Positions 5,298 to 27,190 are shown, numbered from the stretch's first letter. The stretch is 64,000 nt of DNA from Candidatus Bathyarchaeota archaeon (GCA_963733055.1 CAVTBR010000001.1:512001-576000); one strand, 5' to 3'. Notes: generated from the letters alone by a model not told the origin. Numbers and translations are program-made.

Positions 5298-5325
5298 TTT
5301 CGGACGCGCCATTAGACACACACTG
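5298..5325 (-). repeat. 28-bp 11-6-11 site, degenerate
   Basis: + strand TTTCGGACGCG-CCATTA-GACACACACTG; reverse orientation of the consensus. Confidence 0.6.
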
Positions 5326-5339
5326 AGAAACAGGGGGCT

Positions 5340-6041
5340 TTACTTCGTCAGTGTTGCGTGTGGTCCATCTAACTTGACGTATCGCCAAGAACCATCAAAC
5401 TGCCCTGCTTTGAAGGCCCTGACACGCAACCTCGTCCGTGGTTTACCCTCTGAATCGTCGAACTTGACATCAATTACTCCGTCGCACATGTCTTCTAGAC
5501 TCTTGTAAAATGCTGCGGAATGAACTCCGCTTACGAACGCACTGAAAGAAATTCGATCATGTAGCTTGACCCTCGGTATTACGCGGGTTGCGTACCAATC
5601 CAGAAAAGCCTTCTCCTCGTTATATCGCAAAGCGATGGTACCGTTGTCGCTGAAGCCCACGTCGTTTCTTGTTGGATTCTCATCTTTCGTCATCTTCAAA
5701 AAGTAGAGACTCATGTCGGCAACTTTGAGGGAGTCGAAAGCCAATTTCTCTTTAGACTTAATCCCCAGGGTGGCGGAGTATCCGTCATAGAGGTGGAATT
5801 TTCCCTTCGCTTCAAGCGCATCGACATCCGTTCCCAGCGCCTTCAACTCCTGTCTAACTTGATCCGGGAATCGGGTGTAGTCAAAGAAGCTCACGACCTG
5901 ACCTGCGCTCAGAAGGTCATGAACTGTTGATTCAAGAATTTGGTAATAGTTCGAGTCAGGGTCATATTCGATAAGGACCGCAGTTCGATAGGGAACCCCC
6001 GCTGGTATTAGGTCGGCGAGTATGGGTATTCGGACGCTCAT
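5340..6041 (-). CDS. RAD55/KaiC-like RecA-fold protein lacking Walker A (paralog 1)
   Basis: DLIPAGVP...LIEYDPDS (degenerate P-loop); DGVID and LRVRAFK C-terminal KaiC-like motifs. Confidence 0.8.
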   Translation of the reverse strand: MSVRIPILADLIPAGVPYRTAVLIEYDPDSNYYQILESTVHDLLSAGQVVSFFDYTRFPDQVRQELKALGTDVDALEAKGKFHLYDGYSATLGIKSKEKLAFDSLKVADMSLYFLKMTKDENPTRNDVGFSDNGTIALRYNEEKAFLDWYATRVIPRVKLHDRISFSAFVSGVHSAAFYKSLEDMCDGVIDVKFDDSEGKPRTRLRVRAFKAGQFDGSWRYVKLDGPHATLTK

Positions 6042-6129
6042 AAGATTCTTGTAAAATCATGTTGGAACCCGCACAAATAGATTTCAGTAATCAGGGGACG
6101 CAGAAATCTGAACCGTCGTGGCTCGTCGT

Positions 6130-6157
6130 CAGAGTGGGTCAAGTAGGACGCACACAC
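6130..6157 (+). repeat. 28-bp 11-6-11 site preceded by T-loop-like box
   Basis: CAGAGTGGGTC-AAGTAG-GACGCACACAC; AATCTGAACC at 6105-6114. Confidence 0.65.
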
Positions 6158-6204
6158 ACGAAAACTACAAATCTACTAGAACATAGGATTCTCATGTGTT
6201 CTAA

Positions 6205-6936
6205 TTGCCAAGGATGCCGTTAATCGAAGATTTGACTAAGGGGCCTGTACCCCCTGGATCGAATATTCTCGCTGAGTTTGATCCAGCCTCTCAATGGTAC
6301 AATACATCACTCACAATCGCGGCGGGATGGATAAGGAGTGGCGGCGTAGCCAGCTACAACGTGTACGACCACCCGCCTGATAACGTCAGGTTGCAGCTCA
6401 AACACCTCGGACTAGACACCGAGAGATTAGAAAAAGAGGAGAAATTTAGGATCGTAGATTGGTATACTTTCCAGCTAGGTCAGAAATCCAAAGAGAAATA
6501 TGCGAACGATTCCTTGAAAGTCGCGGACCTGAGCCTATTTTACTCTAGAACAGTGATTACCGCTACCCGCTCACCTTACCCCGGCACCCGATACCAATTG
6601 GGACCTGACGTCCTCAGAATCGCAGATGACGAGATGGTTGTCCTAAGATTCAACGACGAGAAAAGCTTCATCGACCTCTGGCGAACGCGAGAGATTCCAA
6701 CTGCGCCTGCGACGAAGTCGACGCAAATCTTGGGTGCGGTTAAGGGAGTTCATTCCGAGCACATCTACAAGAATCTGGAAGCCTCAGTTGACGGTATCAT
6801 TGACCTCAAGATTGACGAAGAGGAGGGTGAGGTAAAGAACCTGATGCGGATTAGGAATATGCGAAGCGTAGGTTATGACTCTCGCTGGCATCGTCTGAAG
6901 ATCGACGAGAACTTCGAAGTCACGTTAGAGAAGTAA
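6205..6936 (+). CDS. RAD55/KaiC-like RecA-fold protein lacking Walker A (paralog 2)
   Basis: GPVPPGSNILAEFDPASQWY, DGIIDL and MRIRNMRS...DSRW. Confidence 0.8.
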   Translation: MPRMPLIEDLTKGPVPPGSNILAEFDPASQWYNTSLTIAAGWIRSGGVASYNVYDHPPDNVRLQLKHLGLDTERLEKEEKFRIVDWYTFQLGQKSKEKYANDSLKVADLSLFYSRTVITATRSPYPGTRYQLGPDVLRIADDEMVVLRFNDEKSFIDLWRTREIPTAPATKSTQILGAVKGVHSEHIYKNLEASVDGIIDLKIDEEEGEVKNLMRIRNMRSVGYDSRWHRLKIDENFEVTLEK

Positions 6937-6959
6937 CCATTCACCAGTCCCCTTTCGGT

Positions 6960-6998
6960 GTGTGTGGGTCTAGTGGTGCGAACGACCAGATTTGAACC
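6960..6998 (+). repeat. 28-bp site fused to tRNA-3'-end-like sequence
   Basis: GTGTGTGGGTC-TAGTGG-TGCGAACGACC-A-GATTTGAACC; reverse complement of 6974-6998 is GGTTCAAATC-TGGTCGTT-CGCACCA. Confidence 0.8.
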
Positions 6999-7082
6999 CG
7001 GTTGAATGTGCCCGGTAAATTGCGGTCAGGATCGGTTGGCAGGATTTCAGAGTGAAGTTGGACCGCGCGTTCGTTCGGCTGT

Positions 7083-7661
7083 TCAGCTGTATGTCTTTAC
7101 GAGGGTTTCGAGTTTCTGGGTGGCTTGTGTGGTTACGGCTTTCTTCAGGTCGTTTCCCTGATGGTCCTGGGTTACTAGTACTGGTCCGAAGTCTTTTACT
7201 TCCCATATCCAAACGAGTTCCGTTGGGCCAAGTTGTTCAAGCAATCGTTTCTTCACTCGTACGATCTTTGAGACGGCTAGGGCGGAGGCTCCGCCGGTGA
7301 ATTCGGAGTAGACGGCGCCGAATGTTTCCAGCCCCTTCTTCCCTTTCTCTCCTAGACCGCCTTTTCCGATGATGATTTTGGTTTGATACTTTTCTAGGAT
7401 GGGTGGGGTTAGGGCGTCCATGCGTGTGCTTGTGGTTGGGCCGCCGGCTAGGATCCTCCATTCGTCGCCGACCTTTTGTGAGATTGGGCCGCAGTGGAAG
7501 ATTGGTAGGCCGATTAGTTCTGGGAGGAATGTTTCGATTAGTTTCTTGTGGGCTTGATCTCTCGCGATTGCAATGTCGCCTGTGACATAGAGTACGTCTC
7601 CTGCACGAATGTCAACGACTCGGCTGTTGTCTTGTGGGACGTGGAGTCTTAATTCTACCAT
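7083..7661 (-). CDS. Class I fumarate hydratase / tartrate dehydratase, beta subunit
   Basis: ARDQAHK, GPTTSTRM, IIGKGG and DFGP motifs. Confidence 0.92.
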   Translation of the reverse strand: MVELRLHVPQDNSRVVDIRAGDVLYVTGDIAIARDQAHKKLIETFLPELIGLPIFHCGPISQKVGDEWRILAGGPTTSTRMDALTPPILEKYQTKIIIGKGGLGEKGKKGLETFGAVYSEFTGGASALAVSKIVRVKKRLLEQLGPTELVWIWEVKDFGPVLVTQDHQGNDLKKAVTTQATQKLETLVKTYS

Positions 7662-7667
7662 TGTATC

Positions 7668-25833: not shown

Positions 25834-25861
25834 GTGTGTGGATCGAATCGTGCGCACACAC
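25834..25861 (+). repeat. 28-bp 11-6-11 site
   Basis: GTGTGTGGATC-GAATCG-TGCGCACACAC. Confidence 0.9.
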
Positions 25862-25885
25862 TAGCGGATCCTAGGGTCGCTCGTA

Positions 25886-26098
25886 TTATGGAGGCATTAC
25901 TCTTTTGCCGCTTCTCTTATCGAACATAACCGTCCACCCGCCCCTTGGAGAAACGCCTCTGATAACATAAAAATCCGCATCTTCGAACTTTTCAGTAACC
26001 GCTGCCTGATGCCACGCGGTTCTAGCGAATAGCTCCGCACGCCTAGAAGCCTCATTCAAGTCCAAAATCTTCTCAGGTTCCATTCTCCTTTCGGGCAT
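25886..26098 (-). CDS. Small hypothetical protein
   Basis: 70 aa from ATG 26098 (MPERRMEPEK...WTVMFDKRSG); lies between two repeat sites. Confidence 0.5.
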   Translation of the reverse strand: MPERRMEPEKILDLNEASRRAELFARTAWHQAAVTEKFEDADFYVIRGVSPRGGWTVMFDKRSGKRVMPP

Positions 26099-26260
26099 TC
26101 TGCGCCGGTTCCTCTGCCACTCACGCCTAGCCAAGACAGTCCCCAATGGCGATAACTTGGACACGTGAATAGAACTTTTCCCGCGGCGGCTAGAACTAGT
26201 ATAGGGTATTGGCGCAGGTTGTTGTGTCGATGCGGCTGTGTGAGTACCTGAATTTGAATC

Positions 26261-26288
26261 GACGTCGGTCCTAATGGTGCGCACACAC
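26261..26288 (+). repeat. 28-bp 11-6-11 site directly after a T-loop-like box
   Basis: GACGTCGGTCC-TAATGG-TGCGCACACAC; AATTTGAATC at 26251-26260. Confidence 0.8.
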
Positions 26289-26310
26289 ACTTACCACGCT
26301 AAACGACGGC

Positions 26311-26349
26311 GGTTCAAATCATCGTGCTCGCACCAGCTGTAACACTCCC
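26311..26349 (-). repeat. Site fused to tRNA-3'-end-like sequence, reverse orientation
   Basis: + strand GGTTCAAATC-ATCGTGCT-CGCACCA-GCTGTAACACTCCC. Confidence 0.75.
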
Positions 26350-26364
26350 GAAGAGGATTAGGAA

Positions 26365-27084
26365 CTATTGACTCAATGTAACTTCGCCAGTGTCTAACAG
26401 GCGGATTTTTCGCCAAGAGGAGTCAAATGGCTTACCTCGCAGTAACCTTACCCGTACACGCTGCTCCATTCGGCCTTCCGTCTCTTTACCCTCGAAATCG
26501 ATTATCCCATCAGACAACGATTCGCATTGCCTATAGAAAGACTCCGAAGCCACTCCAGTCAAAAGAGAAAATATCCACAAAGATCCTGAGGCTTTGGTGT
26601 CGGGGATTCCTCGGGTCCTGAGCCAATCGACAATCGCGTTTTCCGAGTTATACCTGTTAAGAACCGAAAGATTATCGTCGATGTGCAACCAGCCCTTTTG
26701 TTCCTCCGCGTAGCCTTCCTTCAACAGTCGGGATTGGGTGAGGCTCATGTCGGCAAGCTTCACGCTCTGAGTCTCTTCCGTTACGCGTAATCCAAGTTGA
26801 GTGGTGTAGCTATCCTTGATTCTTAGAGCGCCCTCTTCCTCAAGTTTCTTAGCATTCAAACCGAGATTGGTGAGAGCGTTTCTAATCTCGTTAGGATTAC
26901 GTTCGAATGTATGGTACTCAGTTTTCAGACCATCTCTCAAAGCACCAGCTGCAATTGTAAACGACGTTTCATACCAGATAGAGTCCGGTGCGAATTCGAT
27001 GAGTAAATTCGTCCCATATTGGATTCGACCTTGAATTGAGCCCTTCAGGATAGGCAAGGCAGCAGCTCGGGACAAGCGGTTCAT
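26365..27084 (-). CDS. RAD55/KaiC-like RecA-fold protein lacking Walker A (paralog 4)
   Basis: YGTNLLIEFAPDSIWY, HIDDN, DGIIDF and VRVRLLRG..FDSSW. Confidence 0.8.
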   Translation of the reverse strand: MNRLSRAAALPILKGSIQGRIQYGTNLLIEFAPDSIWYETSFTIAAGALRDGLKTEYHTFERNPNEIRNALTNLGLNAKKLEEEGALRIKDSYTTQLGLRVTEETQSVKLADMSLTQSRLLKEGYAEEQKGWLHIDDNLSVLNRYNSENAIVDWLRTRGIPDTKASGSLWIFSLLTGVASESFYRQCESLSDGIIDFEGKETEGRMEQRVRVRLLRGKPFDSSWRKIRLLDTGEVTLSQ

Positions 27085-27161
27085 CTAAGCTCGCAATCGA
27101 ATTAGGCTTGATATCTGTCTTGCGAAGCGGTTGGTATGCGGTCGGCTGAGGTAAGCGTCTG

Positions 27162-27190
27162 AAATTGAATCACGGGTTTAGTGTGTGTCT
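27162..27190. repeat. T-loop-like box plus truncated arm
   Basis: AAATTGAATC-N9-GTGTGTGTCT abutting a stop codon; same layout as 24379-24412. Confidence 0.45.

Follow-up and report, generated by a model that had tools for sequence, protein, structure and literature searches.

What separates the genes in the first half of a 64,000-nucleotide stretch of DNA from a Candidatus Bathyarchaeota archaeon (GCA_963733055.1, CAVTBR010000001.1:512001-576000)? Between positions 5298 and 27190 of this stretch, which was analysed at its full length and is called the window, single genes alternate with copies of a 28-bp motif, and the initial annotation regarded the region as a candidate array of gene cassettes bounded by recombination sites of 11-6-11 geometry, as in Xer/dif systems. 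The window is C1:512001-576000 of a three-contig, 2.88-Mb genome that is 96% complete (G000). How genes are exchanged among Bathyarchaeia, a group of uncultured archaea abundant in soils, peat and sediments, is still poorly understood. On balance, our genome comparisons lead us to lean towards the view that the 28-bp motif is a recombination site bounding self-contained accessory modules in hypervariable chromosomal arrays. The system looks like gene cassettes, but without the known cassette enzymes. The initial annotation is largely borne out in its observation, and comparative footprints support its central idea that modules are captured and shuffled at a short site.

The motif has the consensus GTGTGTGGGTCTAATGGTGCGCACACAC, which is present as an exact copy in this genome. 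In the window, the full 28-bp pattern was matched four times with up to three mismatches (0.01 expected), and its right half, the 14-mer TGGTGCGCACACAC, was matched 11 times with up to two mismatches (0.31 expected), always within 13756-26288. The information content peaks over TGGTGCGCACACAC(AC), drops over GTGTGTGGG and reaches its minimum in the 3-4 bases before TGG. The 11-6-11 geometry is only partly apt: the length of 28 bp, the unlike arms and the 3-4 variable bases agree with it, but conservation is one-sided, covering the right 14-16 bp, and the inverted portion of the arms is the outer 7 bp. Variants of 27 and 29 bp also exist. Around the motif there are T-rich and A-rich borders and no information in a fixed register, and a longer attC-like palindrome was rejected on the latter ground. 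Single-strand folding is weak (-6.4 to -9.7 kcal/mol, z-scores -0.8 to -4.1), giving hairpins of 7-10 bp with large loops. Rfam covariance models had no match at E up to 1 in positions 18000-28000, and readings as clustered regularly interspaced short palindromic repeats (CRISPR) or as RNA were rejected on membership tests.

Individual copies were scored with a matrix of 32 columns trained on 126 sites of other genomes only, which gave 48 positions of at least 15 bits in the 2.88 Mb and none in a shuffled version of contig C1. Of 18 full sites originally listed in the window, 12 reached 17-45 bits (6130, 6960, 13742, 19616, 21199, 21670, 22549, 23136(-), 24402(-), 24911, 25834 and 26261). Three more were weak, namely 19102 (5.4 bits), 26322 (1.7 bits) and 15680 (0.5 bits), the first and the last of these having the right arm only, and the remaining three were not significant (5298, -6.7 bits; 19556, -24.5 bits; 24424, -7.8 bits). 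Two proposed half sites, at 20637 and 27181, fall below the detection of the matrix and are backed by comparison with the closest relative, G032, which has a full site at the place of the former and the same half site at the latter. Two further statements of the initial annotation hold as made: each interval between 19.1 and 27.2 kb contains one gene, and there is no copy at 29-64 kb, where nhmmer at E up to 10 found nothing between C1:538291 and C1:601380.

When the whole genome was searched with an nhmmer profile (E<1), 42 copies were obtained. About 11 of them lie in the window at 13.7-26.3 kb and the final 16 kb of contig C2 holds another 12, small groups are found at 1.25, 1.33, 1.38 and 1.57 Mb of C1, and contig C3 (776 kb) has none; the copies are clustered and not spread uniformly among core genes. 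With a simple gene call based on open reading frames (ORFs), under which 89% of the DNA is coding, 35 of the 42 copies lie outside any called ORF and the remaining seven in short, doubtful ones. As the initial annotation had stated, all types of gap are occupied (10 convergent, 6 divergent and 26 tandem), in the proportions expected of random intergenic positions. Copies lie at a median of 62 bp from the preceding stop codon and 118 bp from the following start, and a fixed, operator-like position was not seen, convergent gaps being hit as often as by chance. A GGTTCAA-like word, often within CGACGGTTCAAA(TT), was observed about 22 bp past the right arm in 18 of 61 copies (for example, 24370-24390(-) and 26305-26320(+)) and in mirrored form before the left arm in 12 of 61. 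Across the genome, the word taken as a 12-mer is little more frequent than its reversed control (35 versus 22 matches), and it is not a general promoter word, with 14 occurrences in 784 upstream regions.

The recombination-site reading is supported by the way in which the genes between the motifs are reshuffled one by one between species. When positions 16-30 kb of the window were compared with the 22 other genomes of the genus, the array genes were found singly, at 80-93% identity, on other contigs and next to other neighbours, and no block of at least 80% identity crossed a motif into the next module. For example, the module with the luciferase-like monooxygenase (LLM) adjoins the 25886 module in one species, the KaiC-like module at 21806 sits between other modules in two species, and the GYD module starts exactly at a motif in two species. 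The same picture was obtained from the sites themselves. In an all-against-all comparison of 208 sites, drawn from this genome and no fewer than eight further ones, using 300 bp on each side, 77 pairs had one flank in common and none had both, and the shared flanks usually began 1-7 bp from the edge of the motif. When this test was widened by 80 metagenome contigs with stricter cut-offs, 12 pairs shared both flanks, 11 at 100% identity (apparently the same assembled DNA) and one at 98.4%. Gene order across the sites is not fixed, and in other families the motif has no conserved neighbour genes.

Neighbouring sites are spaced at a median of 1.1 kb. In relatives, homology to the LLM module begins at 19647-19658, where a TATA-like box lies some 26 bp ahead of the start codon, so that modules bring a promoter with them, and most modules consist of one gene with its own promoter. 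Their cargo includes luciferase-like monooxygenase, peroxiredoxin, SnoaL, VOC/glyoxalase, nitroreductase and short-chain dehydrogenase proteins, as well as GyrI-like/Cass2, TPR and glycosyltransferase proteins and many without a known family. The commonest array family has 33 members of about 240 amino acids (aa), 29 of which lie within 200 bp of a motif, compared with 437 of 1090 ORFs overall. It has a KaiC/MEDS-like fold, and the Walker A motif is absent in all 24 aligned members. The family gives 26 matches in this genome (5340-6041(-), 6205-6936(+), 21806-22531(+), 26365-27084(-), C2:518409-519140, C2:525066-525779 and others) and 0-26 among genomes of the genus. As a trans-acting factor of the system it was rejected: it occurs in all 22 genomes of a motif-free genus and has 0-1 matches in the motif-rich genomes G014, G017 and G002. 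The family is cargo and not a factor.

Breakpoints between relatives fall at or inside the sites. In G032, the left flank is 97% identical up to 19129, which is the last base of the 19102 site, and positions 19130-19657, comprising one gene and one site, are missing. In place of the half site at 20637, G032 carries a full site and, after it, two modules missing from the window, and the edge of homology at 20646-20651 falls inside the half site. It also lacks 21227-24910, a block of five genes, and has a single motif at the junction, whose centre and right half are the rare variant of the 24911 site of the window. Further to the right, G032 diverges directly after 25861, and its match to the window returns at 27154, just ahead of the half site at 27181; different modules occupy other intervals of its array. 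The same joint of 21200 to 24911 was found in contigs of three peat metagenome runs, which represent related populations 90-99% like the window and not its strain; stretches without cover in this mapping were not interpreted. The loose ends of these contigs coincide with motif edges (19094/19104, 19610, 19646, 20646, 24390/24394, 24428, 25861 and 27171), and at 24394 a single run offers several alternative continuations. Motif matches in metagenome contigs number 75, of which 24 lie within 150 bp of a contig end, compared with 8.8 expected, and this excess fits assemblies that branch at the site. Joints that go back from about 20612 to 19615 were considered as circles and rejected as mis-mapped, the full motif that follows the LLM gene in relatives having been placed on the most similar copy.

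The most informative case is the border of the whole array, which can be compared with an empty site in G002. There, a match to window positions 14672-15678 is followed, 10 bp on, by a match to 27188-27473, and the locus continues collinear with 33-34 kb of the window. The junction reads TCTGTCAAG, and neither arm is present. In the window, the left junction at 15680 has the order flank, TCTGTCGGG, right arm, and the right junction at 27181 has the order left arm, TCTGTTAGG, flank; half a motif and a common 9-bp core stand at either end of the array, and the two backbone flanks abut at this core in G002. Judged from these three junctions, the triad resembles attB, attL and attR and is a Campbell-type footprint in which the shared piece is the central segment. 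Such a triad is expected if the central segment was the point at which DNA with one full site opened and became linked to a core-like site of the chromosome, or if the reverse occurred in a deletion. Campbell-type integrative elements can accrete in tandem at one att site. Like them, the array has an empty site and two junctions with a short common core, and the insert is bounded by site halves; unlike them, the insert has no integrase and is a string of modules separated by full sites. A second empty site for the window array was not found in the 22 other genomes of the genus, and empty places for single copies of other genomes' sites were not found in this genome. A crossover at the centre is also indicated by a paralogous pair of modules (C1:812928 and C1:1569876, 89% identical), in which homology starts from the centre of the motif and the left arms are unlike, and by the remnant at 20637. 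Together with the triad, these are the three cases that point to the centre, yet the adjoining arm changes in 33 of the 77 one-flank pairs.

Against the reading of the motif as a recombination site stand the nature of the comparisons, the behaviour of the arms and the outcome of the enzyme search. The comparisons span species or metagenome populations that are 90-99% alike and none lies within one strain; at this level, neither an event within a strain nor a circular form was seen. The empty site is a single case and could equally be the product of a deletion. In 33 pairs, one and the same module end adjoins opposite arms in the two genomes, right in one and left in the other, versus 44 pairs with the same arm, and examples are clear at 87-95% identity. 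Since a crossover only in an asymmetric centre predicts a fixed arm for each module end, this arm switching does not fit a simple centre crossover. With the stricter cut-offs, 13 arm-switched pairs and 24 same-arm pairs were counted. By identity, switched and same-arm cases numbered 1 and 27 at 95% or above, 3 and 9 at 90-95%, and 9 and 12 at 80-90%, so that the proportion of switched cases grows with divergence. In the highest class, 24 of the 27 same-arm flank matches are due to the 12 both-flank pairs, which include 11 of 100% identity. These small numbers suggest a slower second process that would turn the interior round. Beside this switching, the rarity of chimeric sites (7 right/right and 2 left/left versus 80 standard) is difficult as well; it indicates that the motif stays a unit, and independent transposon ends abutting each other were rejected on the same counts. 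One of the few chimeric arrangements seen is a composite at about 4010-4070 of locus L109 (G002:C58), where two opposed, overlapping copies place a right arm on both sides of one centre.

The orientation of the motif is also uncoupled from its surroundings. Relative to gene strand, the counts are 143:145 downstream of genes and 117:130 upstream, which is no bias. The interior of a site is not stably tied to either flanking module and follows the shared module in some pairs only. A flip in place, with both flanks kept and the motif inverted, was not found in any pair, the both-flank pairs being 98-100% identical and of the same direction. Turning of the interior may occur as an inversion of 14 bases between the inverted GT/AC arms of 7-10 bp, or as an exchange within those arms. 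The random orientation of the sites is a new property.

The search for an enzyme adds to the points on this opposing side. The initial annotation attributed the reaction to a Xer-type or related tyrosine recombinase acting in trans, which is unsupported. The genome encodes six PF00589 proteins; none is near an array and none of the six reaches the NCBIfam cut-offs, the scores being far below them (XerA, 68.8 versus 220 bits; IntI, TIGR02249, 63.3 versus 265 bits). Four of 23 genomes of the genus have no PF00589 match, and those without include G018, which is 98% complete in 5 contigs and carries 38 copies of the motif, and G007, with 30 copies, while G009 has three integrases and no motif. Serine recombinases (PF00239) are absent from all motif-rich genomes and occur only in two motif-poor ones. 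The Y1 transposase family PF01797 has no match in this 96%-complete genome, the only genome tested, whereas control genomes matched. TnpB (PF07282) is absent from two and IS110 (PF01548) from four of the five motif-rich genomes. In addition, a search of 389 kb of motif-bearing metagenome contigs gave no homologue of the six integrases, the arrays examined have no integrase nearby, and among viral contigs of IMG/VR, 73 contain the 14-mer, which is compatible with chance, and none contains the full motif.

The initial annotation had also suggested looking for XerA/integrase genes or HUH genes of the type of the REP-associated tyrosine transposase (RAYT; REP, repetitive extragenic palindrome) that co-occur with the motif. 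None of the tested families, that is, tyrosine recombinases, serine recombinases, Y1 (in this genome only), TnpB and IS110, fits its distribution, and all were rejected as the enzyme of the motif. The enzyme is not a resident XerA, IntI or other tyrosine recombinase, nor a serine recombinase. The failure of the tested enzymes to match leads to an enzyme of an unrecognised kind or from an element that was not binned with the genomes. Two observations were made beside this search. In G002, which alone among the five motif-rich genomes has the IS110 family, an IS110-family (DEDD) transposase gene (G002:C13:20804-21934) ends about 15-30 bp from a motif copy, the distance being estimated from ORF length, and this element may be an insertion sequence that targets the motif. 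Most archaeal genomes are described as encoding XerA (PMC8371274), and the lack of a XerA-grade protein in this genome, together with a 98%-complete relative without any tyrosine recombinase, raises the question of chromosome dimer resolution.

The distribution of the motif beyond this genome was determined with the 14-mer and a reversed-sequence control. With up to one mismatch, it was present in 17 of 18 sampled genomes of the genus in up to 51 copies (reversed control, 0-1). In a survey of 401 genomes of the class, the exact 14-mer occurred in 53 and was absent from 348, and the reversed sequence was found in none. Nearly all genomes of the window's genus (21 of 22) and of the sister genus (9 of 10) have the exact 14-mer, but only 2 of 22 of a third genus of the same family do, as single copies. 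It recurs in parts of four other families of the order and is absent from the three largest other families (0 of 104, 0 of 71 and 0 of 25 genomes). In three further families the right half is invariant and the centre differs, and in two genomes of other families the G+C-rich motif is retained in loci of 38-40% G+C. Because sequence and not structure is conserved across families, recognition by a protein is indicated, and we infer that a sequence-specific protein recognises the right half.

Some of the more distant occurrences deserve description. One genome outside the order (G065) has seven exact 14-mers and 19 with up to one mismatch. Its sampled motif loci (L342-L369) have about 40% G+C, and the 19 copies have the form of the motif that characterises family f2 of the window's order; the copies are mostly on short contigs, near contig ends, and the genes beside them show no close resemblance to those of the window genome. 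These copies could be due to transfer between orders or to a binning error. A protein of 72-82 aa that adjoins a motif copy (C2:522192-522410(-) and G030 L209 1537-1785(-)) is 69% identical across two families, and this resemblance, greater than that of neighbour genes, may indicate module transfer between families.

Taken with the breakpoints, the conserved right half allows a mechanism to be outlined. DNA would be broken and rejoined within the motif, mostly in or beside the central segment, and a sequence-specific protein would bind the invariant right half, as its cross-family conservation suggests. Segments with two sites could leave as circles with one site, enter another site or a core-like secondary site, or invert. 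As a tentative explanation, which we rate as possible but short of probable, an unrecognised site-specific recombinase or nuclease, encoded in the core genome or on an unbinned extrachromosomal element, would recognise TGGTGCGCACACAC and the inverted GT heptamer and would excise, insert and invert promoter-bearing single-gene modules. It would work in either orientation, and Bathyarchaeia of soil and peat would share a pool of accessory genes through it.

The footprints at the sites could also arise without a dedicated recombinase. If the motif were a conserved protein-binding boundary, such as an insulator, a terminator-associated sequence or a topoisomerase site, comparable to REPs and bacterial interspersed mosaic elements (BIMEs), its copies would be passive hot spots serving as short homology for general or microhomology recombination. 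We regard this as rather unlikely, though it accounts for the fact that no recombinase family co-occurs with the motif, for exchange points that seem to lie anywhere in the site, with an interior that only sometimes follows the module, and for an orientation uncoupled from modules and genes, as exchange in the inverted GT/AC arms would give. The usual distances to stops and starts and the T-rich and A-rich borders are in keeping with it as well. However, for the half sites and the empty-site triad to arise, the motif must break internally against a partner without arms, and 28 bp, or 7-10 bp within the arms, is a very short homology for so pervasive an exchange. Such a boundary also gives no account of a site in nearly every gap of the array or of modules with a single gene, and the patchy distribution among genera fits a transmissible system better than a housekeeping site. 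It is very improbable, in our view, that the motif is instead a self-mobile mini-element, inserted like a REP or a miniature inverted-repeat transposable element in either orientation, and that the variability of the islands is unrelated to it. The intergenic location, palindromic ends, fixed internal asymmetry and random orientation towards genes suit such an element, and so does the IS110-family gene next to one copy in G002, since REP sites are sometimes targeted by IS110-family elements. Against it, no orthologous gap was found that differs by the motif alone, both flanks are shared only in near-identical DNA, and the homology of modules stops exactly at the motif. Moreover, half sites stand at the borders of the array, what is missing from the empty site is the full 11.5 kb and not a 28-bp unit, and this genome has no Y1 (RAYT-type) transposase.

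Less probable again is an operator, at which a transcription factor would control a regulon of stress and accessory genes. The conservation of the sequence across families, the many copies upstream of genes, the GGTTCAA-like word past the right arm and the HTH_10 regulator gene that flanks the array would all be natural for an operator. But convergent gaps hold 10 of the 42 copies, the share expected of positions picked at random between genes, the motif has no preferred direction relative to genes, the GGTTCAA word is rare in upstream regions, and the breakpoints at the motif and the half sites would be left unexplained. An atypical integron, in which attC clusters would lack an integrase (CALINs, clusters of attC sites lacking integron integrases) and IntI would be encoded elsewhere, is the least credible of these explanations. 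The single-gene cassettes and their cargo (VOC/glyoxalase, GyrI-like/Cass2, nitroreductase and SnoaL proteins) are typical of integrons, and archaeal integrons and CALINs, including some in Thermoproteota, have been reported (PMC9668308). The best IntI score, 63 bits against a cut-off of 265, the short sequence-conserved site with its weak hairpin, the lack of conservation in its flanks, the mixed orientation of sites and the presence of genes on both strands, each with its own promoter region, argue against this origin.

The initial annotation was right in this last respect, in that it set the array apart from attC integrons; IntI, attC structure and co-orientation of cassettes all fail. The likeness to integrons and CALINs lies in mostly single-gene cassettes that vary between close relatives and have similar cargo, and in a border marked by a hybrid site at a constant point of entry into the chromosome. 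A variable array of mostly single-gene cassettes at a fixed site, as in integrons, is indeed found here. By contrast, an attC site is an imperfect palindrome of 55-140 bp conserved in structure, and the unit here has 28 bp and is conserved in sequence; integron cassettes are promoterless and co-oriented behind a common promoter, and the modules here have their own promoters, lie on either strand and are flanked by sites of mixed orientation. The integrons described from archaea have IntI and attC, mostly occur as clusters without integrase and include Thermoproteota (PMC9668308).

The other proposed model was the pdif modules of Acinetobacter plasmids, which depend on XerC/XerD. These sites consist of a XerC arm, a 6-bp spacer and a XerD arm, and the modules are described in many combinations with crossovers inside the sites (PMC13141974). 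Like the sites of the window, they have 28 bp, two unlike arms and a variable middle, and they bound small accessory modules. The analogy breaks down on orientation. According to the same source, pdif sites must alternate in orientation, giving C and D modules (PMC13141974), whereas 92 pairs of neighbouring sites up to 3 kb apart were in the same direction in 56 cases and in opposite directions in 36, with no alternation. Furthermore, pdif uses the host Xer proteins, while there is no XerA-grade enzyme here and some motif-rich genomes have no tyrosine recombinase at all; in our system the arms are inverted over their outer 7 bp, and the arrays sit in the chromosome of an archaeon.

Short repeats dispersed in genomes offer a further comparison. 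REP/BIME sequences are short intergenic repeats with inverted ends, found in both orientations and often just after stop codons, and those associated with RAYT occur in hundreds of copies dispersed along the chromosome. The motif shares the short intergenic form, the inverted ends and both orientations, but it has only about 45 copies (42-48), which lie in islands and are missing from a contig of 776 kb; in addition, the genome has no Y1 transposase, the single-strand hairpin is weak, and copies lie at breakpoints of gene content. In a limited literature search, no paper was found that contained both Bathyarchaeia and gene cassettes, or a 13-letter string of the motif.

The motif suggests a defined, searchable signal that marks mobile accessory genes in several families. 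It can be a practical handle for cataloguing the flexible gene pool in metagenomes, and it may explain the breaks that assemblies show there. Should an enzyme come to light, it could represent a new class of site-specific recombinase that acts on a short, well-defined target; should there be none, the case would show that a protein-binding repeat of 28 bp is enough to organise a gene pool resembling cassettes.

The left part of the region contains scattered sites. A motif copy at 6130..6157 (+, 22.2 bits) has a degenerate left arm, and another at 6960..6987 (+, 23.8 bits) a degenerate right arm; between them lies a module gene at 6205..6936 (+) for a KaiC/MEDS-like protein of 243 aa without Walker A, with a weak Pfam match to PF06745, which belongs to the commonest array family. 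The site at 13742..13769 (+, 17.0 bits; nhmmer E 0.0024) has the core and right arm only. At 15680..15707 (+) stands the attL-like junction of backbone flank, 9-bp core and right arm, where the homology to the empty site of G002 ends. A block of two genes for proteins of 96 and 824 aa (15785..18835, -), neither with a Pfam family, follows between this junction and that at 19102. These are the sole genes of the region that are kept together, in 10 of 11 related loci compared, and in G002 the block is on another contig and adjoins a motif copy. The 824-aa protein (16361-18835(-)) has one weak NCBIfam match, to a model of a hypothetical protein, and is 41-98% identical across records from Bathyarchaeia and Nitrososphaeria. 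Next to the block, a 5' piece of 126-130 bp of a glyoxalase/VOC-type gene (15456-15585) is duplicated at 18941..19070 (-; 78-83% identity by blastn alignment) along with the adjoining right-arm-only junction. The right-arm-only site at 19102..19129 (+) thus repeats the 15680 junction together with the neighbouring VOC gene fragment.

The compact part of the array begins with a module at 19199..19516 (+), encoding a protein of 105 aa without a known family and absent at this place in G032, and a full motif copy at 19616..19643 (+, 40.0 bits) with an exact 14-mer. The LLM module (19694..20608, +) is followed by the half site of left arm and centre remnant (20637..20653, +), the AhpC/TSA peroxiredoxin module (20680..21153, +) and the copy at 21199..21226 (+, 17.2 bits), which is the left breakpoint of the 3.7-kb block absent in G032 and the metagenome contigs. 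This block contains the GYD-domain module (21303..21596, -), found also in other arrays of G011 and G014, a motif copy at 21670..21697 (+, 26.5 bits), a KaiC/MEDS-like module of 241 aa (21806..22531, +) with a 90%-identical copy between other neighbours in G013 and G005, and a full copy in a convergent gap (22549..22576, +, 42.3 bits). The SnoaL-like module (22643..23089, -), a copy at 23136..23163 (-, 32.8 bits) and the module for a protein of the amidinotransferase/arginine deiminase superfamily (23201..24214, -) come next. At 24402..24451 (-, 44.8 bits), a full copy (24402-24429) is fused to a partial copy (24424-24451), and this site has various neighbours in metagenome contigs. The block closes with a module at 24484..24840 (-) for a protein of 118 aa, which had been called roadblock-like and has no Pfam or NCBIfam match, and with the right breakpoint at the copy at 24911..24938 (+, 24.7 bits).

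To the right of the block, the TMEM175-like membrane protein module (25057..25707, -) is common to G032, including the interiors of both flanking sites. Its Pfam score is just below the cut-off; with this proviso, the names given initially to the LLM, AhpC/Prx, GYD, SnoaL, amidinotransferase and TMEM175 genes stand, and the genes called RAD55-like have only weak KaiC-family matches. After the full copy at 25834..25861 (+, 32.0 bits), where G032 homology stops, a hypothetical protein is encoded at 25886..26290 (-). Its longest ORF of 134 aa overlaps the site of core and right arm at 26261..26288 (+, 28.6 bits), and the true start is probably inside this ORF. A KaiC/MEDS-like module of 239 aa (26365..27084, -) is the last of the array. 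At 27181..27196 (+), the attR-like junction consists of the left arm GTGTGTG and the 9-bp core and then passes into the backbone; the homology to the empty site of G002 starts from 27188, and the same junction is present in G032. The backbone flank contains a regulator gene with HVO_A0563_N and HTH_10 domains (27192..28130, -) and is collinear with G002 and G032.

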